DNA from: Pseudomonadota bacterium
Lineage (GTDB): Bacteria > Pseudomonadota > Gammaproteobacteria > Burkholderiales > SG8-39
Direction: 5' to 3'
Assembly: GCA_038040245.1 (NCBI GenBank)
Contig: JBBPIU010000004.1
Location: 1-57,649 of the forward strand
Length of the DNA stretch: 57,649 nucleotides
In this document: piece after piece, positions 406-25,908 of the stretch
Numbering within the stretch: the stretch's first letter is position 1
Layout of the letters: the number at the start of each line of letters is the position of its first letter
The notes under the pieces: generated by a model
Databases searched by the model: none
What the model saw: only the letters and a program-made list of their open reading frames with translations
Told to the model about the DNA's origin: nothing
Program-made: the position numbers and the translations under genes

Positions 406-542
406 TGAGCGCACCCTGAGTCGTTCTTCCGGGACTGACTACCATAACATCATGGCGTTAGCCCTGCAACCTGAGAGACCTTCTCGATTTTGATGCGGTA
501 GCACCTTGGCAAGCAAGGAAATTTTCCTCGCCGCCCGGGCAT

Positions 543-2752: not shown

Positions 2753-3391
2753 TTACCGGAACAGCCAGGGGAACTGCTCGCGCCGGCGCGCCTCAAACAC
2801 GCGGATTTTGTCGGCGTGGCGCAGCGTGAGGCCGATCTCGTCCAAACCGTTGAGCAGCGAATGGCGGCGCGAGGGGTCTACTTCGAACCGGTACGATTTC
2901 GAGCCGTCGGTGCTCGAGACCGTCTGCCGCTCGAGATCGACAACGAGGCGCAAGCCGGGCAGCGCGCAGTCGTAGAACAGGCTGTCCACTTCGGCTTCGG
3001 AGAGCACCACCGGCAGGAAACCGTTCTTGAAGCTGTTGTTGAAAAAGATGTCGCCGTAGGACGGCGCGATGACGCATTTGAAGCCGTACTGCTGCAGCGC
3101 CCACGGCGCGTGCTCGCGCGAGCTGCCGCAGCCGAAGTTCTTGCGCGCAAGCAGGATCTCGGCGCCCTTGTAGCGCGGCTGGTTCAGCACGAAATCCGGA
3201 TTGAGCGGCCGCTTCGCGTTGTCCATACCCGGCTGGCCGATGTCGAGATAGCGCCAGGCGTCGAACAGGTTCGCTCCGTAGCCGCTGCGCTTGATGGATT
3301 TCAGGAACTGCTTCGGGATGACGGCGTCGGTATCCACGTTGGCGCGGTCCAGCGGCGCCACAAGGCCATCCAGCACGGAGAATTTTTCCAT
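2753..3391 (-). CDS. leuD: 3-isopropylmalate dehydratase small subunit
   Basis: C-terminal part of the 722-aa track ORF; real start MEKFSVLDG at 3391; [18 protein letters not shown]. Confidence 0.96.
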
Positions 3392-3393
3392 CG

Positions 3394-4809: not shown

Positions 4810-4865
4810 TTTCTTTTGCGTCGCGTAAAAATGGCATTATCCCACAACAAATCAGCGTTTTAAGC

Positions 4866-6008
4866 CTACACCCGGACCTTCCACGCAATGAGCAGCGCGC
4901 CCAGTGCGCCGAATAACGCACTGACCGCGAAACTGGGTGACGGTCCGAGCGCTTCCCAGGTCCACCCAGCGATCAGGGTACCCACGGCACCACCGAACCC
5001 GTAAGTAAGGCTGGAGTAAAGCGCCTGCCCGCGCGCGGCGATGCGGCCCGGGAACAGGCGATGCACCGCGGCGATCGAGGCGGCGTGGAAGGCGCCGAAG
5101 GTGGCGGCATGCAGCAGCTGCGCCACGACGAGCACCGCGAGCAGGTCCACCGCCCAGCCAATGGCGGCAAATCGCAGCGCCGCGCAGGCAAAGCTTGCGA
5201 TCAGCAAAGTGCGCAGCGAAAAGCGCCGCATCAGCTGCGGCAGGCGCAGGAACACCACCACTTCGGCGACCACCCCCAGGGTCCACAGCACGCCGATCAT
5301 CGCCTTCGAATAGCCGGCAGATTCCAGGTAGATCGAATAGAAGGCGTACATCGCCCCGTGCGCCACGGACATGCACATGCACGCGCCGAAAAAGGCCAGC
5401 ACGTCGCTGCGGCCCAACACCGCGCCCATGCGCTCGCTGATGGCGGCCGCGGGCGGCCGCGCGCGCGCCGGAATGCCGAATGCGGCAACGCAGACCACGG
5501 CCGCGAGACCGACGACGATGTCGAGCACGGTCTCAACGCCGTGGTGATCGAGCCAGGCGCCGGTGCCGAGTACCGCCAGGATGAAGCCGATCGACCCCCA
5601 CAGGCGGATCGGCCCGTAGCGCCCAGCCTGCCCTTCCGTCGCCGAGAGCGTGGCGGCCTCGACCAACGGCATCGCACCTGCCGCGAGCACGCTCAGAGCG
5701 AGCATCACCAGCGCTACCCCGGCGACGTCGCGGACCGTGTACAGGGCGGCGAATCCCACGAACACCGCGAACGCGCCGAAAATGACGATCTCGCGCTGCC
5801 GACCGCCGTGATCGGCCAGCCAACCCCACAACGCAGGCGCGAATACGCGCGCGATCTGCGGCATCGCCAGCACCAGCGCGATCTGCGCCGCGCCGAAACC
5901 CTGCGCCGCAAGCCAGAGCGAGAAATAGGGCACCAGCGCGCCCGCGTAGGCGAAGTACGCGAAGTAGTAGGCGGCCAAGCGAGCCGGCAGATTCGGGATA
6001 ACAACCAT
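4866..6008 (-). CDS. MFS permease (HcaT/MFS_1-like)
   Basis: About 12 hydrophobic segments; [28 protein letters not shown] motifs. Confidence 0.85.
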
Positions 6009-10452: not shown

Positions 10453-10872
10453 ATGGATAAGACAAGCATTCTGTTTCCGATGGTCGCGCTCGCGGCGCTG
10501 ACCTTCGCCGTGCTGCTGCTGATCCCGTTGCGGCGCTTCCGCGCCGGCTTCGCCGGCCAGGTAGTCGTCGACGACTTCAAGTACGGCGAGTCAGAGCGCG
10601 TACCGCCGGAGGTCAGCATCCCCAACCGCAACATGATGAACCTGCTCGAGCTGCCGGTGCTGTTCTACGTCGCGTGCCTGACCTACTTCGTCACCGAGCG
10701 CATCGACGACGCAGCGCTCACGCTGGCCTGGGCCTACGTCGGTCTGCGCGTCGCGCACAGCGCGATCCACCTCACCTACAACCGCGTGCGCCACCGGCTG
10801 GTCGCGTTCGCGGTGAGCAACGTCGTGCTGATCATGTTCTGGACGCACCTGTTCCGCGCGCTCGCGGCATGA
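10453..10872 (+). CDS. MAPEG-family membrane protein
   Basis: Four TM segments; NMMNLLELPVLFY, LAWAYVGLRVAHS, R-x-R-x3-F. Confidence 0.82.
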   Translation: MDKTSILFPMVALAALTFAVLLLIPLRRFRAGFAGQVVVDDFKYGESERVPPEVSIPNRNMMNLLELPVLFYVACLTYFVTERIDDAALTLAWAYVGLRVAHSAIHLTYNRVRHRLVAFAVSNVVLIMFWTHLFRALAA

Positions 10873-10918: not shown

Positions 10919-12061
10919 TCAGCGATACTGGGTAAACGTGTTGCTGTCCCGGGTCAGCAGACTCATCAATTTCGGGTGAACGAAAAGCTTTTCCTTGCCG
11001 AATGTCTGTTCGCGCAGGACGCCAATCCCGACGAACGCTTTCAGATACCGGGAGGCAGCCTGGCGCTCCGCGATCCTGGCCTCGACGAGGTTTGCGATCC
11101 GGCAGTACGGCTGCTCGAAGGTCAGATCGACCAGTTCGCGGCTGTAAATCTTGGGAAGTTTGATGCGCACGAAATCCGCCGTCTCGTTCGACAGCTTGCG
11201 AATGGCGGCGATTTTGGCGGTGGTCCACGTCGCCGTTTCTTCGACACCGCGGAGCATGTAGAGCAGCCACGCTTCCCAGGCGCCCTCGCGCGTGACCGCG
11301 AGGAGCAAGCGGTAGTAGTCCGCCTTGTTGTTGATGATGTAGCGGCTGAGATAGAGGATCGGCAGTGTGAGCAGCCCTGTTTCGACGAGGAACAGGCTGT
11401 TCAGGACACGGCCGGTACGGCCGTTGCCGTCGGTGAAGGGGTGAATGGCCTCGAACTGGTAATGCGCCGCTGCCATGCGGATCAAAGGATCGAGCGTTTC
11501 TTCCTCATGCAGGAAGCGCTCCCAATTGGCGAGCAGATCGCGGATGCGCGCCTCGCCCTCGGGCGGGGTGTAGATGACCTCACCCGTGGTGCCTTTGGCG
11601 AGCGCGGTGCCGGGCACCTTGCGCACGCCCATGTCGATGCCCTTGATGTGCGTGCAGATCGATTCCGCGGTGCGCGTGGTGAGCGGCCGGGTTTTCAGGG
11701 CCTTGACGCCTTCCAGCAGCGCGCGCCGGTAGCGCAGGGCTTCCCGGGTCGCAGGATCGGCGCCGCCGTCGGCCTGCGAGTGCTGGAACAGCCGGTCGGC
11801 CGTCGTGACGATGTTTTCGATCTCGGAACTCGCCCGCGCCTCAAGGAGCGGCAGGGTGTTGATGAGCATCGAGGGGTTGGGGATCAACTCGGCCGCTTGC
11901 TTCAGTTCGGCGAGCGCTGCCCTGGATTTAACGCATTGCTTTAAAACGTCTTTTGTCTCTATCTCGACGGCCGGCGGGAGCTTGGGAAGGTCGTTGTAGG
12001 GCCGCTCGGGGTCCCAGGGGCTCCCCTTGCTCGTGTTTACGAAAGCGGATTTTTGCGACAC
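10919..12061 (-). CDS. Fic-family adenylyltransferase with C-terminal HTH
   Basis: Canonical [12 protein letters not shown] Fic motif; N-terminal inhibitory ASSEIEN; HTH-like C-terminus. Start (GTG) is uncertain. Confidence 0.92.
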
Positions 12062-12191: not shown

Positions 12192-12497
12192 TTACGCCGC
12201 AGCCTTCAGCACTTCGACCTCGCGGTCGAGCTTGCCGGCGATGGCGTCCTTCGCGACCTCCAGGTTGTAGTGCGATTGCAGGTTCATCCAGAACTGCGCT
12301 TCCATACCGAAGAATTTCCCGAGACGCAGTGCCGTATCCGCGGTGATCGAGCGCTTGCCATGGACGATCTCGTTGATACGCCGAGGCGACACGCTGATGC
12401 CCTTGGCGAGACGGTACTGGCTGATTTCCAGCCCCTTGAGGAAGTCCTCCGCCAGCACCACGCCGGGATGCACCGGATCGAATTTGCGCTTGGCCAT
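12192..12497 (-). CDS. higA: HigA-family antitoxin (Xre HTH)
   Basis: PVHPGVVLAEDFL, RRINEIVHGKRSITADTALRL, FWMNLQ; ATG at 12497 with AAGGAG upstream. Confidence 0.93.
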   Translation of the reverse strand: MAKRKFDPVHPGVVLAEDFLKGLEISQYRLAKGISVSPRRINEIVHGKRSITADTALRLGKFFGMEAQFWMNLQSHYNLEVAKDAIAGKLDREVEVLKAAA

Positions 12498-12508: not shown

Positions 12509-12649
12509 TCAGTGATAGTTCACGATCTCGACTCTGTAGGCATCGCCGTCCTTCCATACGAAGCAGATGCGCCACTGGTCGTTGATGCGAATGCTGTGCT
12601 GCCCCACCCGGCCGTGCTTCAGCGCTTCAAGCCGATTGCCCGGCGGGAG
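12509..12649 (-). pseudogene. higB: 5'-truncated HigB (RelE-fold) toxin remnant
   Basis: Own translation: LPPGNRLEALKHGRVGQHSIRINDQWRICFVWKDGDAYRVEIVNYH*. This is the C-terminal half only; the N-terminus is replaced by the der-tail copy, and no start codon lies between it and the in-frame TAG at 12716-12718. Confidence 0.88.
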
Positions 12650-12716
12650 GCTAGGCGCGCTTGTGCCCGGCCGCTTTGCTGCGCAGCTGTTTTTTGATTT
12701 GCCGCCGGACTTGACC
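12648..12716 (-). repeat. Degenerate copy of the der 3' end (left boundary repeat)
   Basis: Aligns with 24448-24526: 18-bp identity TTGCCGCCGGACTTGACC at 12699-12716, and 37/42 identity over 12648-12689 including the der stop codon. Confidence 0.92.
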
Positions 12717-12750
12717 TAGCGTCGACGGACACAACAAAAATGTAGTCGGA

Positions 12751-14481
12751 TTACACGGGCCACGCGGCAATCGCAATTTTGGAAAGTTCGACCTGTCGCG
12801 CATCAATAGAGGTGCGGTCCCAATCCGGGTAGGTAGCAATCTGCCGCGTGAGAAGAATATTAGAAGCAGCGAGCACCGGCTTCTTCTCTGCAAACGCCTT
12901 AGAGGACACCTTCTTGTTTCCGGTCTTGTAGAGCAGACAAAGATTGCCGAAGCGCGAAGCACAATCGTCCACCAGCTTCGGATCGACCTTGATCGCGACG
13001 GCCCACCCGGCGCCCGGCTTGCGGGGGAGCACATGTTCGAGATTGACCAATTCAGGGTCGTGAATTGGAGCAAGCTCAGGCGCCTTCCCAGGATTTTTCT
13101 GAACCCAATATTTAAGCTCAAGCGCTCGAAACAACCAACGTGCAACAGCAGGCTTCACATTTTCGTACTTGGCGAAATCTTGAGCGAATTCGTCGTCCGG
13201 CGGAATTATGGCTTTCAAGTTATCCCAGGCCGATTTCGCATGTTTGTGCTTCTTTGTATAAATACCTTCGGCGACCGCAGCAGCACGAATTTCAAGCCGA
13301 CCAGTACGGCCTCGGCCAATCAACTGATACCGAAGAATGAGCGTGACCAGACTCCGTAGGAGCTTGCCAAGTTCATTCGCATCAAAGCGATCAAGGGCCG
13401 CAAGAACGATGGGATGAGTCTGCTTGCCGCCCAAAAGGTCAAGGGCACGGACGGTGTCCTGCGTGGCCGCACCGTGACTTTTCCATAGTTCGCTGTCGGC
13501 CACCTCGAGACCAGCATACTGCTCCGCGACACGAGCTAGCTCCTTGGAAAGTTGAATGACCTTCGCGCGCGAGTCGTAGCGTCGCTTCAGTTCGTGGAAG
13601 AGGCGGCCTCGCTGAATACGACCGTAGCGTGAGGTCCAAAATGCCTTCAGGAAGTCGTCGGCCCGGCGGTCACCGAGTCGAGCCATCATCAACGCCCAGT
13701 TAGTCTGAATCTGCTGCTCACCAGGTCCTTTGGCAACGCGAAAAAGGTGATTCTTTAGCAGGTCGAGTACAGACAGATCGATACCGCGGTCGTTCAGCGA
13801 TTCGAAGATCATGTACGCATTCTCTGGAGCCGTGACATCGAGGCAATTCACCTGGACGTTATCCCGCAGGTACTTCGCGAGGTCGAACAGCTTGCCCGCG
13901 CGAGCCTTCTTATCAGTACCCTGAGCTTCGGCCAATGAGGCGACAAGTTGCCTACACCTAAGCGCCGCGTCACACAGTTTGCGGGTGGACGTGTATCGCC
14001 CGGCCGTTGCCGTCTTGGCTTCAAGCTCGTGCAACGAACAGGTACTTACCACGATCTCCTGAAAAATTTGTTGATTATTCAGATTCATGACAATGCGAGG
14101 CTCGTCCTCCTCAACACCAATTTCCGAAATTCCAATGAACTCGTTCTGAATCTTCGTGGCTTCGGATTCAAAACCGTTCTCCACGAGCCATTGGCGAATT
14201 GCAGCATAGATCATTGTCGTGGTTGCGAGCCGTTGCTGCCCATCGAGGATCTCGAAGCGCTTTGTCCCAGAGGTGTCATCTGCCACAAGGACGAGGAGAC
14301 CAAGGAAATAGTCCGCATCATCCCGATCGAGCGCGCCCACAACGTCTTCAACATATTGCTCAACGGAGCCAATGGGCCACGCATAGTCCCGCTGATGCTG
14401 CGGAACCGAAAAATACCGGCGCTCACTGATTAGCTGACCAATGCCACGAGTGACCGAAACCATGTGCTGTTGCTGTGCCAT
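12751..14481 (-). CDS. DUF262 + DUF1524(HNH) protein, GmrSD/SspE-like nuclease
   Basis: VPQHQRDYAW, ILDGQQRL, IFESLNDRG, NLEHVLP...FGNLCLL...N; visibly more AT-rich than the host genes. Confidence 0.87.
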   Translation of the reverse strand: MAQQQHMVSVTRGIGQLISERRYFSVPQHQRDYAWPIGSVEQYVEDVVGALDRDDADYFLGLLVLVADDTSGTKRFEILDGQQRLATTTMIYAAIRQWLVENGFESEATKIQNEFIGISEIGVEEDEPRIVMNLNNQQIFQEIVVSTCSLHELEAKTATAGRYTSTRKLCDAALRCRQLVASLAEAQGTDKKARAGKLFDLAKYLRDNVQVNCLDVTAPENAYMIFESLNDRGIDLSVLDLLKNHLFRVAKGPGEQQIQTNWALMMARLGDRRADDFLKAFWTSRYGRIQRGRLFHELKRRYDSRAKVIQLSKELARVAEQYAGLEVADSELWKSHGAATQDTVRALDLLGGKQTHPIVLAALDRFDANELGKLLRSLVTLILRYQLIGRGRTGRLEIRAAAVAEGIYTKKHKHAKSAWDNLKAIIPPDDEFAQDFAKYENVKPAVARWLFRALELKYWVQKNPGKAPELAPIHDPELVNLEHVLPRKPGAGWAVAIKVDPKLVDDCASRFGNLCLLYKTGNKKVSSKAFAEKKPVLAASNILLTRQIATYPDWDRTSIDARQVELSKIAIAAWPV

Positions 14482-14552
14482 ATTCGCTCCCTAGCCCGGA
14501 CCGCAAATCGGTCCAGACGCTCCATTGGCTGTTAGCCCAGGTCGCCGGCGCT

Positions 14553-17500
14553 TCATCGCTGACTCGTGAGTGAATACACCATGTCGCCGACGAACCGCCG
14601 AAACGAGTCGTTCTCGACGAACTGCTTGTAGACCTGCGTGTCGTCCTTGAGCAGCAGCTGCATCACCTTGCCGAGCGCCTGGTCGTGTGCCATGCGCGCG
14701 GTGTGCGGCGTGTTTTCCTTCGCGTTCTGATAGGCCTTGTCGGCAGCGACTTTGGGGGCAATGTCATCGCGAATGCGCTTCGCGACATGGTCGGCGTCCG
14801 TGAAGAGCGTGCCGAATTGATCGTTGAAGGTCTTGAGGATGTTGCTGAGGCGGTCGAGTTCGGGTTCGGCCTTGCCACCTCCGCCATCAGTCGGGACGGG
14901 TTCAATCTCCGCATCCTTATCCGCTAACGCAATCTTCATTGCCGCCTTCTTCTCGACGCGGTAGCTATCCATGTCGATGGCTTCAAGGATGCCCTTGGCG
15001 AGGTCCTCTTCCTTCGGAGCTGGCAGCTTGGGCGTGAGCAGGTTCAGGAGAATCGAAAGCTTCTCCCACTCAGGGTTCTTGTATGGCATCACCGAGGCGA
15101 GGAAGTCGTAGGTGCGGCAGAAGGTCTTCGCCTTGCCCTTGAAGTCCACCTGCTGGCCCTCGTCGAGCGTGCCCGTGTAAACCACCACACAGGCATCGAG
15201 GATCGGGTCGAGCCGGTCGCGGTCGGCACCGCCGAGGAACAACTCGACGACCTGCTGAACCTGCTCTGGTGAATACACCTGTGCGCGGTCCAGCGCCGCC
15301 TTCAGGTCATGCAGTTTGTTGGGGTCGGTCTCCTCCGCGAGCAGGGTGGTGCGGTAGTAGTCCTGGAAGGCGAAGGTGATCGCCTCGCTGTTGTTCTGGA
15401 AATCGAGGACGAAACAGTCGTGCTTTTGCGGATGCGCGCGGTTGAGGCGCGAGAGCGTCTGCACCGCCTTGATCCCCGAGAGCGGCTTGTCCACGTACAT
15501 CGTGTGCAGGAGCGGTTCGTCGTAGCCCGTCTGGAATTTGTCGGCGCAGATCAGGAAGCGGTACGGGTCGCCCTGGATCTTCTCGGCAATGTCGCCGCTC
15601 GAAAAACCGTTGAGCGACGGTTCGCTCACCTTGACCCCGCCGTACTCGTGCTGCCCCGAGAAGGCGACGATGGCCTGGTACGGGCTCTTGCGCTCCAGGA
15701 GATACGCCTTCACCGCGTTGTAGTACTGCACGGCGCGCTCGATGCCGCTGGTCACCACCATTGCCCGTGCCTGCCCGCCAATCTTCCCGGCCGCGAGCAC
15801 CTGCTCGTGGAAGTGGTCCACCATGATCTCGGCTTTGAGCCGGATCGCATGGTCGTGGCTCTCCACGTAGCGGCGCAGCTTCTTCTTCGCCTTCCTGGTG
15901 TCGAACTCCGGGTCGCTCTCGATTTTCTTGACCAGCTTGTAGTAGCTGTCCACCGGCGTGTAGGTCTTGAGCACATCGAGGATGAAGCGCTCCTCGATCG
16001 CCTGCTTCATGGTGTAGCTGTGGAAGGGTTTGTGTTTGACCTTGCCCTGGGCATCGGGCGGCAGCGCCTCGCCGAACATCTCAAGCGTCTTGTTCTTGGG
16101 TGTAGCGGTGAAGGCGAAGTAGCTGGCGTTGGTCAGCATCTTGCGCGCCGCCATGCGCTGCTCAAGGGCCTCGTTCACCGTATCTTCCGGGTCCTTCTCT
16201 TCGTCGTCGCCCTCCGCCGCATCGCCCAGCGCCTTGCTCATCGCCGCGGAGGTCTTACCGCCCTGTCTCGAATGCGCCTCGTCGATGACGATGGCGAAGG
16301 TCTTGCCGCCTTCGGTGGCGATCTCGTCGAGGATGAAGGGGAACTTCTGCACCGTCGAGACGATGATCTTCTTTCCTTCCTCGATGAACTTGCGCAGGTC
16401 GCCCGAGCCCTCGGCGTGGCCCACCGTCGCACCCACCTGCATGAACTGCTTGATGGTCTTCTGGATCTGGTCGTCGAGGATGCGCCGGTCTGTGACCACG
16501 ATCACCGAGTCGAACACCTCTTTGCCGCCGCGCTTGACGCCAATGAGTTGGTGCGCGAGCCAGGCGATGGAGTTCGACTTGCCGCTCCCCGCCGAGTGCT
16601 GGATCAGATAGCGCTTGCCCGCGCCGTGGGCTTGCACTTCGGCGAGAGCCTTGCGCACCACGCCGAGCTGGTGGTAGCGCGGGAACACCTGACTGGGCTT
16701 CTTCTTGCCCGTCTTCGCATGTTTCGTCTCGACGATCTGGGCGTAGTTCTCGAGGATGTCGGTCAACCCCGCCGGGGTGAGCAGCACTTTCCAGAGGTAG
16801 TCGGTCTTGACGCCCTGCGGGTTGGGCGGATTGCCCGCACCATCGTTGAAACCCTTATTGAGGGGCAGGAACCACGAGCCCTTGGCCTTGAGTTCGGTGC
16901 ACATGCGCACCTCGCTATCGTCCACCGCGAAGTGCACCACGCAGCGGCCGAACCCGAACAGCCGCTCGCGCGGATCGCGGTCGCGGCGGTACTGCTCCAC
17001 CGCGTCTTCGACCGTCTGCTTTGTGAGGCTGTTTTTTAACTCAAAAGTGGCAATTGGCAGGCCGTTGATGAACAAACCAAGGTCGAGCGCGCGACGCGTC
17101 TCGTCCATGCTGTAGGCCAACTGGCGCGTGATCGAGAAGCGGTTCTGTGCGTGCAGCGCTTGCGCCTTGGCGTTGCCCTCCGAGGGCGTGCCGTAAAAGA
17201 GATCGAAGCGCATCGGCCCATGGTCTACGCCCTTGCGCAGCACGTCGATCACGCCGCGCTTGCCGATCTCCGACGAGAGGCGCGCGAGGAACTTGAGGCG
17301 GTCGATGTCCTTGAGATCGCCAGCGTCGACCATCGCCAGTTTCTTGAAAGCCTCGGGCTGCGTAGCGCGCAGGAAGGCAAATAGCTGCGGCACATCGAGC
17401 GCATGGGCGCGGTCGTAGTCCTTCGCGCTGCCCGCGAAGTACCCCGTGCCGCCGTAGGGCGCGGGCGGCTCGGCCAAGACGCCCGGCGTGACGGCGAGGC

Positions 17501-17570
17501 CGTCCGTGCCGGTCATGTGGCGCATGATCAGCGTTTCGAGGCCCTTTTCGCTGGTGTCGGTGGTAGTCAC
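14553..17570 (-). CDS. hsdR: Type I restriction enzyme R subunit
   Basis: DLGLFINGLPIATFELKN nuclease motif, HSAGSGKS, IDEAH, FTATP, KFQTGYDEP, QTLSRLNR; GTG at 17570 overlaps the upstream TAG. Confidence 0.95.
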   Translation of the reverse strand: MTTTDTSEKGLETLIMRHMTGTDGLAVTPGVLAEPPAPYGGTGYFAGSAKDYDRAHALDVPQLFAFLRATQPEAFKKLAMVDAGDLKDIDRLKFLARLSSEIGKRGVIDVLRKGVDHGPMRFDLFYGTPSEGNAKAQALHAQNRFSITRQLAYSMDETRRALDLGLFINGLPIATFELKNSLTKQTVEDAVEQYRRDRDPRERLFGFGRCVVHFAVDDSEVRMCTELKAKGSWFLPLNKGFNDGAGNPPNPQGVKTDYLWKVLLTPAGLTDILENYAQIVETKHAKTGKKKPSQVFPRYHQLGVVRKALAEVQAHGAGKRYLIQHSAGSGKSNSIAWLAHQLIGVKRGGKEVFDSVIVVTDRRILDDQIQKTIKQFMQVGATVGHAEGSGDLRKFIEEGKKIIVSTVQKFPFILDEIATEGGKTFAIVIDEAHSRQGGKTSAAMSKALGDAAEGDDEEKDPEDTVNEALEQRMAARKMLTNASYFAFTATPKNKTLEMFGEALPPDAQGKVKHKPFHSYTMKQAIEERFILDVLKTYTPVDSYYKLVKKIESDPEFDTRKAKKKLRRYVESHDHAIRLKAEIMVDHFHEQVLAAGKIGGQARAMVVTSGIERAVQYYNAVKAYLLERKSPYQAIVAFSGQHEYGGVKVSEPSLNGFSSGDIAEKIQGDPYRFLICADKFQTGYDEPLLHTMYVDKPLSGIKAVQTLSRLNRAHPQKHDCFVLDFQNNSEAITFAFQDYYRTTLLAEETDPNKLHDLKAALDRAQVYSPEQVQQVVELFLGGADRDRLDPILDACVVVYTGTLDEGQQVDFKGKAKTFCRTYDFLASVMPYKNPEWEKLSILLNLLTPKLPAPKEEDLAKGILEAIDMDSYRVEKKAAMKIALADKDAEIEPVPTDGGGGKAEPELDRLSNILKTFNDQFGTLFTDADHVAKRIRDDIAPKVAADKAYQNAKENTPHTARMAHDQALGKVMQLLLKDDTQVYKQFVENDSFRRFVGDMVYSLTSQR

Positions 17571-18511
17571 TAGGCAACCGCCCAAATGTTCAACAAAGTC
17601 CGCGCAAAGGACTGGTCTCGAATCACACCGTTCCGACGCAACCGCTTCTGCGCACACCCAAGTTCTCGCGCCAACGACTTGACCTTCCGGCGCCGCCGCG
17701 CCGGTCGCTCCAAGTAAACAAAGGATATCCGGCGCTTGCGGTCCCGGCGCGGGCGCACGTGCAGCACATTGCCGGGCGGCGAAATCAAAACACTGCCGTC
17801 ACCCTCATCAGTAACCTGCACCACCACATCATCACGCTCGTAAGGGCAGATACCAGAGTATCGGAAGCTATCCAATTCAAAACTGCGCGGATGCTGGCGG
17901 CGCTTTCTAGCCACGGCCAAACCGCTGTCGTGGAGGTTTTGATCGTGGTCCGACCACGGAACCAATTTCAGTTGCGCTAGAAGCACTCGGGGGAGCGTCG
18001 CGCGGCGGAACGTTTCCTTCACTTGCTTCTTCCCTCGTTTGCCGCCCGGAATTCGTGGTGGGCGATATAGCTTGGCCAACCGCTTCAGCACGTGGGGAGT
18101 CAGTTCATGGAGGCAATGCTCGCGCACGAACTGCAGCGCTGCGCGGACGACGCCGGACTCGTTCGTACGGATCACCGCCTCGACCAGTAGGCCCGCAGAA
18201 CGGCTGGAAGCGTTCGTCGAGCCGATGTAGGCGGCACGGCCCAGCACAAACACCTTCGCATGCAGGTTCGGCACGCTGTAAACGGCTACACCGCGTTTCT
18301 GCAGCTTCAACAGGTCGGCCGGACAAGTCTGGCCGGAGGCGACGGCGCGTTCACTGGCATCTACCACGAGCCGGCTACCCTTTGAAAGCGGCAACAGGCG
18401 GCTCGCGCCCGCGCCGAAATACGCGACGGCCACGGCACATCTCTGCCGAGAACTACGCACAGCCTTGGTGAGTTGGGGCCAGATATCCCGACTCAGAAAG
18501 GCGGTAGTCAT
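17570..18511 (-). CDS. Phospholipase D-superfamily (single HxK) putative nuclease with basic C-terminal domain
   Basis: AVAYFG, NLHAKVFVLGRAAYIGSTNAS, downstream conserved Glu (LVEAVI); coupled to hsdS and hsdR. Confidence 0.75.
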   Translation of the reverse strand: MTTAFLSRDIWPQLTKAVRSSRQRCAVAVAYFGAGASRLLPLSKGSRLVVDASERAVASGQTCPADLLKLQKRGVAVYSVPNLHAKVFVLGRAAYIGSTNASSRSAGLLVEAVIRTNESGVVRAALQFVREHCLHELTPHVLKRLAKLYRPPRIPGGKRGKKQVKETFRRATLPRVLLAQLKLVPWSDHDQNLHDSGLAVARKRRQHPRSFELDSFRYSGICPYERDDVVVQVTDEGDGSVLISPPGNVLHVRPRRDRKRRISFVYLERPARRRRKVKSLARELGCAQKRLRRNGVIRDQSFARTLLNIWAVA

Positions 18512-19893
18512 GCGGCCGCCTCCTCATCCGCGGACTCAGTCTCGTCGCTCACGTCAGCGGTTTCCTCGTCGGTGTAGGGTGCGGATTCCTCGGGTAGTCG
18601 GGCCGCCACCTCGCGCACATCGAGCTTGCCGGTCACCACGTCGGCGACGAGACGGGTACGGTATTCGCGGAGCAGTTCGATCTCGCGTTCAAAGCGGGTG
18701 ATGGACGTGTTCAGGTCAGCGGTTTCCAATTGAATCGCTTTGACGATCCGCTCTTGCTCCTCAGGTGGTGGTTGAATGAGCGGAAGCCGAAAGAACTCTT
18801 CGGGGTACAACCGGAGGCGCGACGCCCGCAGTCCTGTTGAACGGCAAATAATATTCGAAACATACGGCCTGCAACGGAGCAGACCATCCATGTATGTACC
18901 AACGATGCGCTCGGGTCGATGTGGCCGGTAGACAGCGTAAGCGGGGCTGATGATTCCTGCGTAGGTTGAGACGCCTAGCGCGCCCATCCATGCCCACATC
19001 GTGTTCACTACGAGATCACCCGGCTGACAAAGTTTGTGGCCTGCATATGACGCGGCCTTGAACATCGTTATGTTCTTTTGGCTGCGCGGGGTAACGCCAG
19101 TAAGGTGCGAAACAGAAAGTAGTTCTTCGTTGCCATGAGTAGAGCGGTCATCAACTTCGCGATACAGGTACTTCGCACGCAGCACCTCCCAATGCCGTGG
19201 AATGTCGCCGAGCCAAGGGATACCGGACGGTTTTAGGGGAACGAAGGGATCGAGGCCGCGGGTGACGGCGCGGTGGATGATGGCCTGCTTTTGCTCGTTG
19301 AGCAGCGCGATCACCTTCCGCTTCGCCCGGATCGTCCGCTCCAGCCGCCCATTCGCCCAGTCCAGAAACCGCACAATCGCCGCCTGCTCGCCGAGCGGGG
19401 GGAGAAGAATTGGAATCTCTCGCATTCCAGCAATGGACAAATCCCACTGACCGACTCGCACTCCGTCGGATGCCTGCGCGAAGTGCGCGACGTACGGTTT
19501 GCTGCGAAGCAACCTCTGACCGAAAGCGTGGTTGGCGATGCGGAAGTCGAAAACAAAGTAGGCTGGGCTGACGATCCCATCGCATGGCGCGATGCCCATT
19601 GAGCCCTGCCACGCCTTCATCTTGTTGATCACGAGATTGCCAGCACGAGCCACCTTGTAGTTGCTCAGATCTTCAGGAATGACGTTGTGATTCTCATCTG
19701 CATCGGTGAGAGAGCGAACGAACACGCCCTTCTCCCGCGCGACCGACAACAGCGGCAGATCTGCCCGATCTCGTTCGGTTCGCTTCGAGATGAGCGTGCG
19801 GAGATTCCGCACTTCCCATTTAGCCGGGACAGCGCCAAGCCACTTTGAGCCCGACTCCTTGTATTGCACATACGACTTGAGGTCGGCGATCAT
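18508..19893 (-). CDS. hsdS: Type I R-M specificity subunit
   Basis: YKESGSKWLGAVPAKW and LKPSGIPWLGDIPRHW repeats, two TRDs, PPLGEQAAI and PPPEEQERI helices, VVTGKLDVR. Confidence 0.95.
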   Translation of the reverse strand: MIADLKSYVQYKESGSKWLGAVPAKWEVRNLRTLISKRTERDRADLPLLSVAREKGVFVRSLTDADENHNVIPEDLSNYKVARAGNLVINKMKAWQGSMGIAPCDGIVSPAYFVFDFRIANHAFGQRLLRSKPYVAHFAQASDGVRVGQWDLSIAGMREIPILLPPLGEQAAIVRFLDWANGRLERTIRAKRKVIALLNEQKQAIIHRAVTRGLDPFVPLKPSGIPWLGDIPRHWEVLRAKYLYREVDDRSTHGNEELLSVSHLTGVTPRSQKNITMFKAASYAGHKLCQPGDLVVNTMWAWMGALGVSTYAGIISPAYAVYRPHRPERIVGTYMDGLLRCRPYVSNIICRSTGLRASRLRLYPEEFFRLPLIQPPPEEQERIVKAIQLETADLNTSITRFEREIELLREYRTRLVADVVTGKLDVREVAARLPEESAPYTDEETADVSDETESADEEAAA

Positions 19894-22010
19894 GCTTGCC
19901 CGCCGTCACTCATTTGATCCTCATATGCCTGGCGGACGATGCCCATCACGTAAGGCAGTTCCTCCATTGATCTCAGACTTATTTCCACGTCGCCGTTGCC
20001 CCAACGACCGGTCCCGGATACGTCTTTGCAAAGCCCTTTAGGATCCTTCAAGTCAGAATAATCCAGGTTTACGCTGAGTCGCAGTCGCTTGGCCTGCGGG
20101 ATCACATCTACAAAGTTGGTCTCGGCCTTGTATGCCACATACAGCTTCGTGAACTCCTCGGTTACGCAGGGATCCAGTGAGAGAACCTCCTTGCGGAAGG
20201 CCTCGAAGAGGTCTCTCACGACAGCTCCATACATCTCGCTGCCCTTTGCCAGGTACGGATGGTCGTCGATGGTGTAGCCGCCGGTCGCCGGGACCTTCGC
20301 GGGCTGGTAGCTGGCTAGCGTTGCGGCATCGAGTTTCGGCGCGGCCCACACGCTGAGAGCCTGTGCGGCCAGCCGGTCCGCGCGTTTGTGGATGGCATCT
20401 ACGTTCCACACGTCAAGCTGACCGAGACCTGCGTTAAGCGAGAGCGGACTTTGCTTGAATCCGCCTTTCATGTCGCGCTTCTCGGTGAAGGAGCGATCGC
20501 TGTACTCGGCGTTGTAGCCGGTGAGTGTGAGGTTGCCGAGCGTGTGCAACCACTGCTGCTGCACGCGTTGCCAATCGGCGCCGAGCGCCTCCTGCCACGC
20601 TGCCGGAAGGTCAGGGTTCTGCGGCATGATGTGCTCGATGGTGTACTCATCCACTGGCACGCGCTCCTTGCGACCGTGATTCTCCAGCCGGCGCAGCCAG
20701 TAGCTGCGGCTTCGGAAGTTATAGAGGTCGCGGGTGTGCAAGTCGAGACGGCATTCGTCATCGGTGGGAAAGCGGCGATACGAGGGCAGCGTGAGAAAGT
20801 GGGCCTGAATGCTCTCGAGGTATCGATCCTTCTTTAGTGTCTTACCGAACGTGGCAAAGGTCTTGTTCATCGAGTTGGTAGGGATCGCGCAGATGGCGCG
20901 CCGGAACACATAGGCCTCCACCAGCCGCACCGCGGCTGCGAAGTCGGCAGCGGTGAGCGTGCCGTTCGCGTAGTCGTGATACAGCTCAAGTAGGAACGGG
21001 TAGGCGACATCCACCTTCAACTCGCGCAGGTCGTGAAAGGCATACTTGAGTACGGGGTCCTGTTCGGTGCCCAGGGCCAAGGCGCAGAAGTAGCGGGCAA
21101 AGGCGCGGATCTCCTTCACCAGCGTCTCGATGCCCGCTTCCCTCACGGGCGTGGTACGGGAGTAGTCCTTAAACGCCTCGTAGACCTCGCGCTCGCGCGG
21201 GATGTCGCCCGTGCGCACGGTGAGGTAATGGCGCATAAAGCTGTCGAACTGGGTGCCGTAGGCCTCCTGCCCGAAGTCCTGCTCCATCGGCCGCCAGTAC
21301 TCTTCGTAGAGGCGAGTCTGGAGCGTGGGATCGAGGCCCATGAGGATGAAGTTGCGGATCAGGTCGGCCTGGCTCAGCTCCTTGCCGGTCGAGTTCATGC
21401 TCTCGAAGATGAGCTGGGGGTTGTCCTGGTCCCGACTGAGCGCGATGTCCACGACCACCAGCTTGGCGAGGCCACGGCAGACCGGGGCGAGATCGCCTTT
21501 CCGCTCCTTGAGCAACTCGGTGTACAAGTCGAAGTTCTGCGTGACTCGCAGTGACGGCTCCTTGGGCTGCTCGGTGTTCTTGATGACGGCCTTGAGCGAA
21601 GCGTTGTCGGTCTGCGAGAGCAGCAGCTTGAAGTATCGGTCGCCGCTTTCGAGCGGATTGCTAAGGTAGTAGTGACGCAGCTTGGCGGCGGAGAAGCCGT
21701 CCACAGGTTCGCCGTCGCCCAGCGCGCGGGCCAGCGATTCGAGCAGGAGCGCCACGGTAGTCAGGCGTTGCTGGCCGTCGATTACCAGCAAGGGCGCTTG
21801 GTGCGTGACTTGCGACAGCCCCTGCTCGACATAGACGATGGAGCCAATGAAGTGGACCGCGATGGTGTCGCTCGACCCAGCGCGCAGGATGTCGTCCCAG
21901 AGCTGGCGGCACTGCTTGTCGGTCCACGAGTAGGTGCGCTGGTAGATCGGGATGATGAACTGCGGCGACTTCTGCAGGAAGCTCAGCAGCTTGGCTTCGG
22001 TGGCTTTCAC
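19890..22010 (-). CDS. DUF262 + DUF1524(HNH) + C-terminal DUF5655-like protein, GmrSD-like nuclease
   Basis: IPIYQRTYSW, IDGQQRL, IFESMNSTG, TIEHIMPQ...LGNLTLTGYN; C-terminal KLYVAYK...GRWGNGDVE. Confidence 0.88.
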   Translation of the reverse strand: MKATEAKLLSFLQKSPQFIIPIYQRTYSWTDKQCRQLWDDILRAGSSDTIAVHFIGSIVYVEQGLSQVTHQAPLLVIDGQQRLTTVALLLESLARALGDGEPVDGFSAAKLRHYYLSNPLESGDRYFKLLLSQTDNASLKAVIKNTEQPKEPSLRVTQNFDLYTELLKERKGDLAPVCRGLAKLVVVDIALSRDQDNPQLIFESMNSTGKELSQADLIRNFILMGLDPTLQTRLYEEYWRPMEQDFGQEAYGTQFDSFMRHYLTVRTGDIPREREVYEAFKDYSRTTPVREAGIETLVKEIRAFARYFCALALGTEQDPVLKYAFHDLRELKVDVAYPFLLELYHDYANGTLTAADFAAAVRLVEAYVFRRAICAIPTNSMNKTFATFGKTLKKDRYLESIQAHFLTLPSYRRFPTDDECRLDLHTRDLYNFRSRSYWLRRLENHGRKERVPVDEYTIEHIMPQNPDLPAAWQEALGADWQRVQQQWLHTLGNLTLTGYNAEYSDRSFTEKRDMKGGFKQSPLSLNAGLGQLDVWNVDAIHKRADRLAAQALSVWAAPKLDAATLASYQPAKVPATGGYTIDDHPYLAKGSEMYGAVVRDLFEAFRKEVLSLDPCVTEEFTKLYVAYKAETNFVDVIPQAKRLRLSVNLDYSDLKDPKGLCKDVSGTGRWGNGDVEISLRSMEELPYVMGIVRQAYEDQMSDGGQA

Positions 22011-24310
22011 TTGGCACCTACCTTCAGCAAGCCATCGAGCAGGCCCTCGGCCTCTTTCTCAATGGCGAGGATGTCGGCGCTGATCTCCTCCAGCCTGCGA
22101 AGCGGCTGCGGCTTGTAGAAGTGCCGCGTGAAGCTGACCTCGTAGCCGATCTTGGTGGCGTCCTCTTTGATCCATGCGTCGCGCGTGTAAGGCAGCACCT
22201 CGCGGCGGATGAAGGCTTCGATACCGCCGTCTTCCAACAGCGGCACCTGCTCGGTGTCGCGCAGGTCGGAGTCGGGTTCGTACTCCACGGTGGCTGGCTT
22301 GCCGTCTACTGTTGCCTCAAACAGCCCGCACAGCGGATCGGCCTTGGTCTTGTTGGCCTTGTGTACTTTGGCGATCACCGGGACGGCAGTCTCAACGCGC
22401 CAGCTCACGGCCTTGAGGATCTGCTTCAGGTCGGCGGCGGAGAGCTTGAGGGCTGCCTTCTTGAGCGCGGTTTCCACGTGATCGCGAAAGAGGTTGTGGT
22501 CCTCAAAGAGTGCGTCGCCCAGCGCCTTGCGCAGCGCTGTGGCTACTTCGACAAGCCGCGCGTCGCGCTCCCAGGTCTTGGGATCGAGCAGCTTCTTTTT
22601 CTTCTTCTCGGGCAGACCCTTCTTGGCGCTGCCACCCTCTTCGTCGTCGCCCTCGTCCTCATCGCCGCCCCAATCAGCGAGGCGCTTCTCCAGCGCAGAT
22701 GAAATCGCGGTGAACTTGGTGAACAGCTCGTCGCCGAACTCTTCGTAGAGCGCGGTGCGCAGGTCTTCGTCGCCCGACGCGAAGCGCAGCGTCTCGATGG
22801 CCTTGAGCGAGAGCTGGCTGTGCAGGCGAAGTGGCCGCTCAACCGTGACCTTCCAGTAGCCGAAGGCGGCGTTGGGGAAAATCTTCGACTCGGGGGTTTC
22901 CTTGAAGTCGAGGAAGGTGCGGCTGATGCGTTCGATGTCTTCGGGCGAGAGCTCGCAGTTCTTCTTGCCGAGGTTCTTGCGGAGCGGCTTGAACCACTGG
23001 CTCGCGTCGATGAGCTGCACCATGCCCTTGCGGTGCGCGGGCTTCCTGTTCGACAGCACCCAGATGTAGGTGGCGATGCCGGTGTTGTAGAAGAGGTTGA
23101 GCGGTAGCGCAACGATGGCTTCGAGCCAGTCGTTCTCGATGAGCCAGCGGCGAATATTGCTCTCGCCCTGGCCCGCGTCGCCCGTGAAAAGCGAGCTACC
23201 GTTGTGGACCTCGGCGATACGGCTGCCGAGCGCCGAGCTGTCGTTCATTTTCGACGCCATGTTGGCGAGGAAGAGCATCTGGCCATCGCTGGAGCGGGTG
23301 ACGAGCGACAATTCCTCGCCCGCGTGCATCACCTTGAAGCGCGGGTCGCGCATGCCATCCTTACCTCCCATCGCCTCGAGGTCCTTCTTCCAGCTCTTGC
23401 CATAGGGCGGGTTCGACATCATGAAGTCGAACTGCATGGCAGGGAAGGCATCGTGCGAGAGGGTGGACCATTCGGCGCCACCGACGATGTGGTCGGCGTT
23501 TTCGCCCTCGCCTTTGAGGAGCATATCCGCCTTACAGACGGCGTAGGTCTCGGGGTTGATCTCCTGACCGTAGAGGTGGCAATTGATCTGAAGGCCGCGT
23601 TGTATCGCGATCTCCGTGAGTGTCTCCTCCCCCACGGTGAGCATGCCTCCGGTGCCGCCGGTGCCGTCGTAGAGCAGATAGGAACCGGACTTGAGCTGGT
23701 TCTCGATCGGCAGGAATACAAGGTTCGCCATCAGGCGCACGGCGTCGCGCGGCGTCCAGTGCTCGCCCGCCTCCTCGTTGTTCTCCTCGTTGAACCTGCG
23801 GACCAGCTCCTCAAAGACTGTCCCCATCGCGTGGTTGTCGACGCCGGCCGGAGACAGGTCGATCTCGGGGTCGAGGAACTTGTTGATGAGCGTGCCAATC
23901 GCGTCGGCCTTCGAGAGTGTGGTGAGCTGGTTGCGGAACTTGAAGTTGTCGAGGATGTCTTGGACGTTGGGCGAGAAGCCGTTCAGGTAGTCCTCGAAGT
24001 CGGCCAGGAGCTGTTGCTGGCTGCCGCGGGACTTCAGGTCGCGCAGGGTGAACTTCGAGGTGTTGTAGAAGGCCTGGCCCGCGGCTTCGGCGAGCGCGGC
24101 ACGCTGCTCGGTGATACCGCTCTTGTCGAGCATCTTCTTGGTGTCGAGCACGGCCTGCTTGGTGGGCTCTAGCACCGCATCCATGCGGCGGATGACGCAC
24201 ATGGGCAGGATGACGTCGGGGTACTTGCCGCGCTTGAAGAGGTCGCGGAGGACGTCGTCCGCGATGCCCCAGATGAAGGAGACGATCTTGTTATGGATTG
24301 CTTGATCCAC
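22007..24310 (-). CDS. hsdM: Type I R-M methyltransferase subunit
   Basis: FIWGIADDVLR, AGEHWTPRD, YDGTGGTGGML (SAM-binding), YGQEIN, SNPPYG, FYNTGIATYIW. Confidence 0.95.
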   Translation of the reverse strand: MDQAIHNKIVSFIWGIADDVLRDLFKRGKYPDVILPMCVIRRMDAVLEPTKQAVLDTKKMLDKSGITEQRAALAEAAGQAFYNTSKFTLRDLKSRGSQQQLLADFEDYLNGFSPNVQDILDNFKFRNQLTTLSKADAIGTLINKFLDPEIDLSPAGVDNHAMGTVFEELVRRFNEENNEEAGEHWTPRDAVRLMANLVFLPIENQLKSGSYLLYDGTGGTGGMLTVGEETLTEIAIQRGLQINCHLYGQEINPETYAVCKADMLLKGEGENADHIVGGAEWSTLSHDAFPAMQFDFMMSNPPYGKSWKKDLEAMGGKDGMRDPRFKVMHAGEELSLVTRSSDGQMLFLANMASKMNDSSALGSRIAEVHNGSSLFTGDAGQGESNIRRWLIENDWLEAIVALPLNLFYNTGIATYIWVLSNRKPAHRKGMVQLIDASQWFKPLRKNLGKKNCELSPEDIERISRTFLDFKETPESKIFPNAAFGYWKVTVERPLRLHSQLSLKAIETLRFASGDEDLRTALYEEFGDELFTKFTAISSALEKRLADWGGDEDEGDDEEGGSAKKGLPEKKKKKLLDPKTWERDARLVEVATALRKALGDALFEDHNLFRDHVETALKKAALKLSAADLKQILKAVSWRVETAVPVIAKVHKANKTKADPLCGLFEATVDGKPATVEYEPDSDLRDTEQVPLLEDGGIEAFIRREVLPYTRDAWIKEDATKIGYEVSFTRHFYKPQPLRRLEEISADILAIEKEAEGLLDGLLKVGAK

Positions 24311-24447
24311 TATCGGTCGCGCTCCAATTCAGTCGTCGTTTCAAGGCAGATGATTGTCGCCGGAAAGTTCGAGCGGCAGCTATCAGTTATAGCTCCCTTC
24401 TTGTAACACAGGGCTTCGCATGCAACGCTACTCGGGCAATGAGCGAA

Positions 24448-24526
24448 AGGCTAGACGCGCTTGCGCCCGACCGCTTTGTTGCGCAACTGCTTTTTTGACT
24501 TGTTCGGCTTGCCGCCGGACTTGACC
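24448..24526 (-). repeat. der 3' end, right copy of the direct repeat
   Basis: Contains the 18-bp core at 24509-24526, identical to 12699-12716. Confidence 0.92.
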
Positions 24527-25908
24527 CGCGGCGCGGACTTGCTGTGCCCGAGGGCCCGCTTGCGCACCGGGGCTTTTCGGTTCTCGTCGTAGGGGTTCCT
24601 GCCGGTGCGCAGTTCGATGCGCAGCGGCGTTCCCTGCAGCTTGAACGCATCGCGGAACCAGCCCTCCAGAAATCGCTTGTAGGCGTCGGGGACATGTTGC
24701 AGCGAGTTGCCGTGAATGATGACGCGCGGCGGGTTGGAGCCGCCCTGGTGCGCGTAACGCATTTTGGGGCGCGCATAGCCCCTGCGGTGGGGCGGCATCT
24801 GGCGCTCGACCGCGGCGATCAGCGCGCGCGTCAGCTTCGGCGTCGAGAGCTTCGCCATCGCCGCCGCATAGGCTGCATCCGCCGAGCGCAGGACTTCGTT
24901 CACACCCTTGCCCGATTTCGCGGAGATGAACAGCGTATCGGCGAAGCCCAGAAATCCCAGACTCCAGCGCAGTTCGTCCTTGACGCGATCGCGCATCGAT
25001 TTGTCCGCCGCCTCCCACTTGTTCACGGCAACGGTCACCGCGCGGCCGCGCTCCAGTATGTAGCTCGCGACGTGCGCGTCTTGCTCCGTGATGCCTTCCA
25101 CCGCATCGAGCACCAGCACCGCGACGTTCGATGCCTCTATCGCCTGCAGCGTCTTGACGATCGAGAAGCGCTCCACCGCGGCGCCCGCAGACCGGCCGCG
25201 CTTGCGCAGTCCGGCAGTATCCACCAGTGTGTAGCGGCGGGCGTTGCGCTCGAACGGCACCTCGATGGCGTCGCGCGTGGTGCCGGGCTCGCCGTAGACG
25301 AGCACGCGCTCCTCGCCGACCAGCGCGTTGACCAGGGTGGACTTGCCGACGTTGGGCCGGCCGACGATGGCGATACGGGGGTGCTTGTTTTCGCTTTCAT
25401 CGGCAAGAACATCCTCGGGAAAAGGCTTCAAGACCTCTTCCATCAGCTCGGTCACGCCGCCGCCGTGCGCGGCGGAGATCGCGGCCGGGTTGCCCAGGCC
25501 GAGTTCGTGAAATTCGGCCGCGGCGGTCGCCGGATCGATGCCTTCCGATTTGTTGGCGGCGATCCAGACGCGCTCCTTCAGACGCCGCAGTTTCTCCGCG
25601 ATCACGCGGTCGCCGGGCGTCAGCCCGGCGCGCGCATCGGTGACCAGGATCACCGCATCGGCCTCGACGATCGCCTGCTCGGTCTGGCGCGCCATCTCGA
25701 CGTAGATGCCGTCGTCCGAATCGGGCTGCAGCCCGCCGGTATCGATGACGATGCAGGAACGGCCGCCGAGCAGGCCTTCGCCGTAATGGCGGTCGCGGGT
25801 GACGCCGGGAATATCCACCACGATCGCGTCGCGCCGCCGGGTCAGGCGGTTGAACAGCGTGCTCTTGCCGACGTTCGGCCGCCCGACCAGGGCGATAACG
25901 GGCTTCAC
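24451..25908 (-). CDS. der: Ribosome biogenesis GTPase Der (EngA) with basic C-terminal tail
   Basis: Two GRPNVGKS P-loops, DTGG/DTAG, KH-like C-terminal domain; downstream of bamB. Confidence 0.97.
   Translation of the reverse strand: MKPVIALVGRPNVGKSTLFNRLTRRRDAIVVDIPGVTRDRHYGEGLLGGRSCIVIDTGGLQPDSDDGIYVEMARQTEQAIVEADAVILVTDARAGLTPGDRVIAEKLRRLKERVWIAANKSEGIDPATAAAEFHELGLGNPAAISAAHGGGVTELMEEVLKPFPEDVLADESENKHPRIAIVGRPNVGKSTLVNALVGEERVLVYGEPGTTRDAIEVPFERNARRYTLVDTAGLRKRGRSAGAAVERFSIVKTLQAIEASNVAVLVLDAVEGITEQDAHVASYILERGRAVTVAVNKWEAADKSMRDRVKDELRWSLGFLGFADTLFISAKSGKGVNEVLRSADAAYAAAMAKLSTPKLTRALIAAVERQMPPHRRGYARPKMRYAHQGGSNPPRVIIHGNSLQHVPDAYKRFLEGWFRDAFKLQGTPLRIELRTGRNPYDENRKAPVRKRALGHSKSAPRVKSGGKPNKSKKQLRNKAVGRKRV

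Follow-up and report, generated by a model that had tools for sequence, protein, structure and literature searches.

How does a defence island that carries no mobility genes reach a fixed chromosomal address, given that most hotspots for such islands are scarless? We addressed this question at a locus of a Pseudomonadota bacterium of the Burkholderiales lineage SG8-39, in a stretch of 57,649 nucleotides (nt) that we call the window (assembly GCA_038040245.1, contig JBBPIU010000004.1, positions 1 to 57,649). Here a Type I restriction-modification (R-M) island of six genes lies directly behind the essential GTPase gene der (engA) and is bracketed by two copies of the 3' end of that gene. The genome that holds the window, G000, is a metagenome bin of 277 contigs and 3.42 Mb. 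On balance, we read the stretch as the insertion footprint of an integrative element that is now without a recombinase, that entered by a Campbell-type event and that resembles the cis-mobilizable elements (CIMEs), in a variable hotspot downstream of der.

The evidence begins with the repeat. Within the window, the only two copies of the perfect 18-mer TTGCCGCCGGACTTGACC lie at 12699-12716 and 24509-24526, and shuffled sequence leads one to expect 0.00 matches even with up to two mismatches. When both repeat copies were compared by BLAST with all 277 contigs, each matched only the other, the remaining hits being at most 15 nt long or 21/23 identical; the repeat noted in the initial annotation is therefore a pair in the assembly as in the window, and not a dispersed genomic element. 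Beyond the 18-mer the two copies agree at 42 of 48 positions (88%) between an A-run and the third nucleotide after the der stop, and an indel of 9-10 nt separates this part from the 18-mer, copy B having an extra GCCGAACAA ("PNK"). Upstream of the 18-mer the homology ends sharply. Altogether the two form an imperfect direct repeat of 69 and 79 nt that comprises the final codons of der, the stop and three further bases, so that the degenerate continuation through the stop codon described earlier, including both of its peptide readings, was correct.

The two copies differ in condition. Copy B, next to der, supplies the working end of the gene, so that one member of the direct repeat lies inside the 3' end of der and provides a replacement tail in frame, as expected of a site-specific element. 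In copy A the A7 run is one base shorter, which puts the 18-mer out of frame (-1) with the tail and makes this copy a pseudogene fragment. Because it is out of frame and is also fused to a 5'-truncated higB, we take copy A to be an old displaced piece. The proposed layout, in which an insert at the end of der supplies a new tail and displaces the original one, is thus borne out, with copy B in frame and copy A decayed.

Between the copies, the claim that there are only restriction-type genes and no recombinase, transposase or rep gene holds for all six open reading frames (ORFs) as annotated with Pfam and PADLOC, the PLD-like ORF falling below the Pfam cut-off (Table 1). With hsdM, hsdS and hsdR all present, the operon is a Type I R-M system, and a GmrSD gene is embedded within it. 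Both att-like repeats are kept and integration and transfer genes are absent from the island, as in a CIME. The absence of a transposase domain from the island ORFs and a duplication of 69-79 nt set the locus apart from Tn7-like elements. Intergenic DNA in the island amounts to 245 nt (140 + 71 + 34), which leaves no room for a decayed integrase, and a recombinase profile found no match in the 25 kb from der onwards. Island GC content is 0.53-0.65, compared with 0.67-0.69 in the bamB-der flank.

Table 1. Features of the der locus in the window and of the second repeat pair in G470.
Feature	Position	Strand	Details
der (engA)	24451-25908	-	485 aa; two GTPase domains and a KH-like domain; Pfam MMR_HSR1 2.4e-54, KH_dom-like 3.4e-24
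Repeat copy B	24448-24526	-	working der 3' end (VKSGGKPNKSKKQLRNKAVGRKRV, then stop) and 3 nt past the stop
Perfect 18-mer, der-proximal copy	24509-24526	.	candidate crossover segment
Leader, der stop to hsdM start	24311-24450	-	140 nt; left junction TAGCC followed by TTTCGCTC
hsdM, Type I methyltransferase	22007-24310	-	767 aa; Pfam N6_Mtase 6e-50, HsdM_N; PADLOC MTase_I 2e-257
GmrSD-type (DUF262/DUF1524) nuclease with DUF5655 C-terminus	19890-22010	-	Pfam GmrSD_N 3e-35, GmrSD_C 5e-23, DUF5655; PADLOC Orf5 2e-190
hsdS specificity subunit	18508-19893	-	461 aa; PADLOC Specificity_I 1.7e-117; weak Pfam Methylase_S
PLD-like ORF	17570-18511	-	313 aa; Pfam PLDc_2 1.8e-5, below cut-off; no PADLOC match
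hsdR restriction subunit	14553-17657	-	Pfam SWI2_SNF2, HSDR_N, ResIII, T1R_D3-like
Second GmrSD-type gene (GmrSD2, PADLOC HEC-06)	12751-14481	-	576 aa; GC 53-55%
Spacer, GmrSD2 stop to distal 18-mer (right junction)	12717-12750	.	34 nt; foreign homology ends at 12742
Repeat copy A	12648-12716	-	displaced der pseudo-tail: 18-mer, then KKQLRSKAAGHKRA and stop in the -1 frame, then 3 nt past the stop
higB, 5'-truncated	12512-12646	-	final 45 codons; Pfam HigB-like_toxin 1.1e-7, profile positions 48-91 of 91; directly abuts copy A
higA-type HTH antitoxin	12192-12497	-	Pfam HTH_3 2.4e-7; ATG read at 12497-12495, listed ORF to 12575
SoFic-type Fic protein	10919-12061	-	380 aa; Pfam SoFic-like_C, Fic_N, Fic; PADLOC SoFic 2e-120
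Repeats in G470	L300 (G470:C26:2400-10720), ~5881-5938 and 8012-8069		last 16 codons of der, stop and 4 nt

Relatives show the same address without the island. The gene der was present in 41 of 41 relatives searched. From 20 genomes of the same genus we took the DNA that follows der, up to 20 kb each. The conserved genes for a MAPEG protein, a TetR regulator, a large spermidine-synthase-like membrane protein (SpmSyn) and an MFS transporter begin 0-2 kb past the der stop in 18 of these loci, and the other two reach a contig end at 0.8 and 2.0 kb. Five further stretches, four of them usable and one (G018) without der, include two empty sites (G044, G041), a partial locus (G047) and a locus with the MFS gene directly after der (G042). 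The R-M island is absent from these loci, and at least 21 genomes of the genus are without it. A contig of the probable source run, described below, points to a further island-free allele. Contents of the site differ among G000, G049, G003, G042, the pair G017/G006 and the rest: defence or toxin-antitoxin (TA) genes occupy it in G000, G049 and G003 (in the last, der is followed by a Fic gene of 93% amino acid identity), and most other relatives have, by our reading, small membrane proteins or an FAD-oxidoreductase-like ORF. This is the picture of a hotspot, a fixed address flanked by bamB-der and by MAPEG/TetR/SpmSyn/MFS/leu/asd.

When the whole island was used as a DNA query against 34 genomes of the genus, G049 was the sole further holder. 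Its left junction is identical (TAGCC followed by TTTCGCTC) and it has the same 140-nt leader, which is common only to G000 and G049 and does not occur in Type I R-M operons of other taxa. Its island (operon at L061 4032-13735) consists of hsdM (91% amino acid identity), a YhcG/DUF1016 gene, hsdS (45%), a Schlafen-AlbA_2/HATPase_c_4 gene and hsdR (97%). Twelve nucleotides past the hsdR stop begins a higA without its 5' end, which is fused to a prlF-like end and followed by yhaV (Pfam 1.8e-51; this segment is L061 13747-14416) and then by Fic; the TA modules at the der-downstream locus are mosaics. With 18 of the 20 genus loci and three more without the island, and an alternative island in G049, both the empty and the alternative alleles whose absence would have spoken against an insertion have been found. 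Nucleotide identity between G000 and G049 is 81-91% over bamB-der, 82-96% over hsdM and 90-97% over hsdR. In a nucleotide tree of der, made with the tails removed and representing this one gene only, G000 pairs with G008 (support 0.97), where the site is empty, and G049 with G003 (support 0.62). If the der tree is the species tree, either the island is older than these species, with no loss that we can see, or it has moved between lineages by flank homology. Separately, an unplaced 1648-nt contig of G008 (G008:C17; L053, 1-1648) carries an internally deleted hsdM, 85% identical to that of the window, joined to a YhcG-like gene.

The genus also indicates what the end of der was like before it was disturbed. 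In genomes with an empty site, der overlaps tail to tail with a convergent gene for a 125-aa membrane protein (smp). In G008 (L031, G008:C44), for example, der occupies 18-554(+) and smp 507-884(-), so that the 48 nt at 507-554 are shared and the der tail is dual-coding. By our reading, copies A (12651-12697) and B (24451-24498) keep the antisense of the C-terminal smp codons, with the smp gene itself gone; copy B retains the smp stop, and its last 48 nt correspond to the antisense of the 15 C-terminal smp codons, as deduced from G008. Every junction in the genus, whether to an empty site, Fic, the R-M island or the truncated higB, comes directly after the TAGCC of der, and thus insertions and deletions stop exactly at its end. 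The Lys/Gly-rich tail is hypervariable in the genus and occurs in two sequence types. Units of 12 nt (GGCGGCAAGCCN) are repeated two to three times in the der tails of G003 (L032) and G042 (L064), an additional A in the A7/A8 run of G003 shifts the frame so that der reads on, and a premature TAG in G014 (L035), G022 (L036), G015 (L037) and G005 (L034) has left the old tail as non-coding DNA.

A second duplication of the der end was found in another genus of the family. We took der 3' ends and 8-15 kb downstream from other genera, in batches of 40 and then 60 genomes, which gave 98 usable loci (40 + 58). In one of the first 40, G470, a 58-nt direct repeat with 52 identical positions (90%) brackets 2.08 kb, and no further copy exists in that genome. 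Next to der the repeat reads NPYVKRD before the stop, and in the distal copy NPYAKRD; the der of its sister species G443 ends in NPYAKRG and has no repeat, and therefore the distal copy looks native. The copies enclose a DUF433 gene (9e-19), which overlaps an ORF of 119 aa, together with small unnamed ORFs and a weak match to DUF2281, a cargo that appears TA-like, with no recombinase among it. Different cargo between der-tail repeats, for which the initial annotation proposed to look, thus exists, with the repeat drawn from a different part of der. The second batch showed no der-tail repeat in its 58 usable loci; tail matches of 14-20 nt in L278, L324, L372 and L377 were dismissed as chance, lying inside ordinary coding-like DNA.

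The cargo has a history of its own. Homologues of HsdM at 66-91% identity mark 80 loci in many phyla, including archaea (Methanosarcina/Methanolobus bins), and der adjoins the operon in none of the 80, each taken with up to 10 kb of upstream flank. In the closer of these loci DNA homology starts at 24296-24333, in the remoter ones within hsdM at 24275-24287, and it ends at the hsdR stop (~14552-14602). Because homology is confined to the interval from hsdM start to hsdR stop, the der-like tail, the leader and the spacer lie outside the travelling operon. We accordingly rejected the idea of foreign R-M islands that carry a der-like tail, since the hsdM start codon is where homology to the 80 loci begins. 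Judged by its homologues, the cargo is foreign. Within the operon family the accessory genes between hsdM, hsdS and hsdR are swapped (GmrSD, PLD-like, YhcG/DUF1016, Schlafen-AlbA_2), homologues of the PLD-like ORF hold the equivalent position in 3 of the 80 foreign operons, and the HsdS sequences diverge strongly, with the gene order of the window recurring in foreign loci. In 12 of the 80 loci a tyrosine integrase is encoded within 10 kb.

The distal end of the island can be traced separately. A module comprising GmrSD2 and the hsdR 3' end (12742-14630) recurs at ~97-98% identity in contigs from three runs, two of hot springs and one of sediment (X2, X3 and X5), and the similarity stops 9 nt past the GmrSD2 stop codon. 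The hot-spring and sediment runs also hold a relative with a der of ~92-94% identity and contigs that cross the leader. An order-wide DNA search with the same module gave matches in 18 of 401 genomes including G000; the others had only pieces of 24-90 nt, none over GmrSD2, and the strongest of these lay in the hsdR 3' end. In the X2 and X3 contigs, 143 nt inside the MAPEG gene region (window 10694-10838) are replaced by 17 other letters.

A circle that joins the chromosome by a single crossover leaves its insert flanked by a direct duplication of the target end. We infer the circle, the involvement of a site-specific recombinase and which of the copies is native. A circle would have integrated within the last ~70 nt of der and brought in a der-like replacement tail (copy B, now in use), the 140-nt leader, the R-M operon with its GmrSD and PLD-like genes, and GmrSD2. 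The resident tail (copy A) would have been displaced by 11.8 kb and would then have decayed through a 1-nt deletion in the A-run. The attP of the element would have mimicked the end of der, and its recombination module would since have been lost, leaving the CIME state; its present spread and turnover among relatives would probably depend chiefly on homologous recombination in the core genes at its flanks. In favour of a site-specific form of this event, the homology is short and imperfect, the layout is classical and the distal copy in G470 is native-like.

Several observations weigh against this interpretation. No recombinase, transposase or replication domain is found in the six island ORFs. 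A tyrosine-recombinase profile, built from six of the seven PF00589 proteins of G000, recovered the seventh as well as the integrases beside foreign HsdM operons, and it found no tyrosine recombinase within 8-20 kb downstream of der in ~120 loci (40 + 60 from the family, 21 from the genus; serine recombinases were profiled within the window only), so that the integrases expected downstream of der in related taxa did not appear. The seven PF00589 matches in G000 are all on other contigs, none with der-like sequence. The repeat of the window lies in a 45-aa tail extension and that of G470 covers IEFRTGRNPY, non-homologous parts of der; the two cases therefore share no common core, which excludes a single site-specific system. 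To call der an attB-like site, as had been suggested, is thus a fair description of the footprint; the action of a site-specific recombinase is not borne out by the ~120 loci or by a common core. Mobilisation in trans, proposed for the cassette, finds no support as a present-day process, because no third att copy that might belong to a helper attP occurs in G000 or G470. G049 has no second der tail at the distal side, nor does it have GmrSD2 or the truncated higB, and the duplication is rare, with one case in the 98 usable family loci. Both tails are ordinary alleles of one of the two sequence types of the genus: copy A has its nearest match in the der tail of G003 (88% over 74 nt), and the extra "KP..K" codons of copy B resemble G014, G022 and G015. 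The divergence of 12% between the copies is similar to that of der between G000 and G049, and the copies may have been identical at first. Taken by itself, the perfect 18-mer is not significant, since by our estimate a clean run of 18 nt at 12% divergence has a probability of ~0.1. No circle and no precise-excision joint (12716/24526) was present among 15 joints inspected, of 59, when the probable source run was assembled independently from k-mers; since this is a set of contigs, in which rare forms are dropped, the result speaks neither for nor against excision.

These observations lend some weight to a tentative alternative with no site-specific recombinase. An island just after der in a relative would have been excised imprecisely, taking ~70 nt of the der end with it, or would have been taken up and have formed a circle, and a RecA-type single crossover in the der homology would have been followed by divergence to 88%. 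The ordinary character of both tails, the lack of integrases in the profiled loci, an A-B divergence comparable to that of der between species, and junctions that in all genus loci fall right after TAGCC are consistent with such an event, and the fact that the repeats of the window and of G470 share a position at the gene end and not a sequence fits a generic mechanism. However, homologous recombination would work poorly on 58-79 nt of 88-90% identity whose perfect runs measure only 18-22 nt, if the copies already differed then, and the event needs a circular intermediate that was not observed. G008, the sister of G000 in the der tree, has an intact empty site, and it is therefore not evident that the time since the insertion sufficed for a divergence of 12%. 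Somewhat doubtful, too, is the idea that the end of der is a recurrent landing site, in at least two genera of the family, for recombinase-less defence or TA cassettes of small to medium size that carry the local gene end; the route would be an undescribed one, either capture of a neighbouring gene end with short-homology insertion or helper recombinases, encoded elsewhere, that recognise the position of a gene end and not a fixed core.

It is less probable that the stray der tail is a product of hotspot turnover, that is, of repeated allelic replacement between diverged relatives combined with illegitimate joins and deletions after the der stop. The locus is plainly unstable: relatives vary in which of MAPEG, TetR, SpmSyn and the small membrane gene follow der directly and in which of these are truncated, G049 joins hsdR to the truncated higA with its prlF-like end and yhaV, and higB is truncated at the der stop with what we read as CGCCGG-type microhomology. 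Movement by flanking homology has moreover been proposed for core defence hotspots (PMC10250203). Yet a linear double crossover alone cannot duplicate an anchor segment in direct order, a perfect junction of 18 nt far exceeds the microhomology usual in illegitimate joins, and the same layout arose independently in G470. We consider it very improbable that contigs of two co-occurring strains were simply misjoined at shared der sequence. The genome is admittedly a bin of 277 contigs and a second allele of the locus exists in the same run, where a contig connects 10875, a position just beyond MAPEG, with the der stop at 24449, at a depth of 12.9, compared with ~22-30 for the island; the letters between the two sides of this joint are unread and its shorter side is only 30 nt, and we read it as a probable island-free allele of a co-occurring relative. 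Both junctions of the island are nevertheless covered by independent contigs of the probable source run (pieces 12567-14625 and 23537-24485) at a depth of ~22-30 that matches the island and with 0 differences, which makes a chimeric join at the 18-nt repeat, the misassembly that had been named as a possible objection, unlikely. A shared perfect stretch of 18 nt lies below the usual assembly k, and the distal copy has substitutions and a frameshift of its own.

The favoured reading, the footprint of a recombinase-less integrative element, can be placed among known systems. CIMEs, described for streptococci as elements that lack integration and transfer genes and retain attL and attR (PMC5704250), are the closest parallel: like them, the der island is bounded by direct repeats that take in a housekeeping gene's 3' end, lacks genes for integration and transfer and has an adaptive cargo, at a site where further elements can accrete, as in the higBA-SoFic layer behind the displaced tail. 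It differs from CIMEs in that no cognate integrative and conjugative or mobilizable element with the same att was found in the genome, genus or family sample (no third repeat copy in G000 and no integrase downstream of der in the ~120 loci) and that descent from such an element is not demonstrable; in its host, a high-GC, Gram-negative-type metagenome-assembled genome; in its target, der; and in its repeats, which are 88% identical outside the 18 nt.

Insertion at a 3' end with a replacement end is reportedly found for e14 and phage 21 in icd, for SGI1 in trmE and for islands in guaA, and the ssrA islands of Dehalococcoides are said to be integrative elements at the 3' end of the tmRNA gene. 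The der island shares with these a replacement tail through the stop, a displaced original tail, empty sites and a GC content below that of its flanks; unlike them, it has no integrase beside one att site. The cDHS1 and cDHS2 loci of Pseudomonas aeruginosa are core defence hotspots between conserved genes, for which transfer via flanking homology has been proposed (PMC10250203). The der locus resembles them in its fixed address between core genes, in its variable defence cargo and in often having no recognisable mobility genes; in contrast to them, a gene-end duplication survives at der as an insertion scar, and many relatives hold membrane or metabolic genes at the site. In its cargo alone, and not in its entry into der, the island is like Type I R-M operons with accessory genes of the order hsdM-insert-hsdS-insert-hsdR, the inserts being GmrSD and PLD-like genes in the window and YhcG/DUF1016 and Schlafen-AlbA_2/HATPase_c_4 in G049.

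Some features of the neighbourhood complete the description. All genes from der through copy A are on the minus strand. The true start of hsdR is probably near 17564, because the alignment with G049 begins at residue 32. The Fic gene belongs to an older layer of the same variable locus. Beyond Fic follow MAPEG, TetR, SpmSyn, MFS, leuC/D, leuB and asd, and upstream of der stands ndk-rlmN-TPR-rodZ-ispG-hisS-yfgM-bamB. An ORF of 722 aa at 2753-4921 consists of leuD (Aconitase_C, residues 511-642) and a shadow-frame extension over leuC (3394-4809); a leuCD fusion gene was rejected here, since Pfam sees only Aconitase_C at 511-642.

To the initial annotation der was not known as a described integration site, and der/engA is indeed not named as an attachment site in the full-text literature searched, which did not cover subscription literature and supplements; in PMC9902376 a mention of "GTPase Der" belongs to a list of allele markers and not to an attachment site. 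A metagenome scan for the 18-mer, suggested as a further check, returned chance matches, with none of the best 120 of an estimated ~420 stretches encoding der.

One family of Type I R-M operons extends across many phyla at 66-91% protein identity, with its internal accessory genes swapped. If the gap in the literature is real, der joins the housekeeping genes whose 3' ends are used by incoming DNA. With its scar, an empty site, a scarless sister island and a second case with other cargo, the der locus offers a concrete and testable model in which insertion can be weighed against exchange through the flanks as the way in which defence islands that carry no mobility genes reach their fixed addresses.

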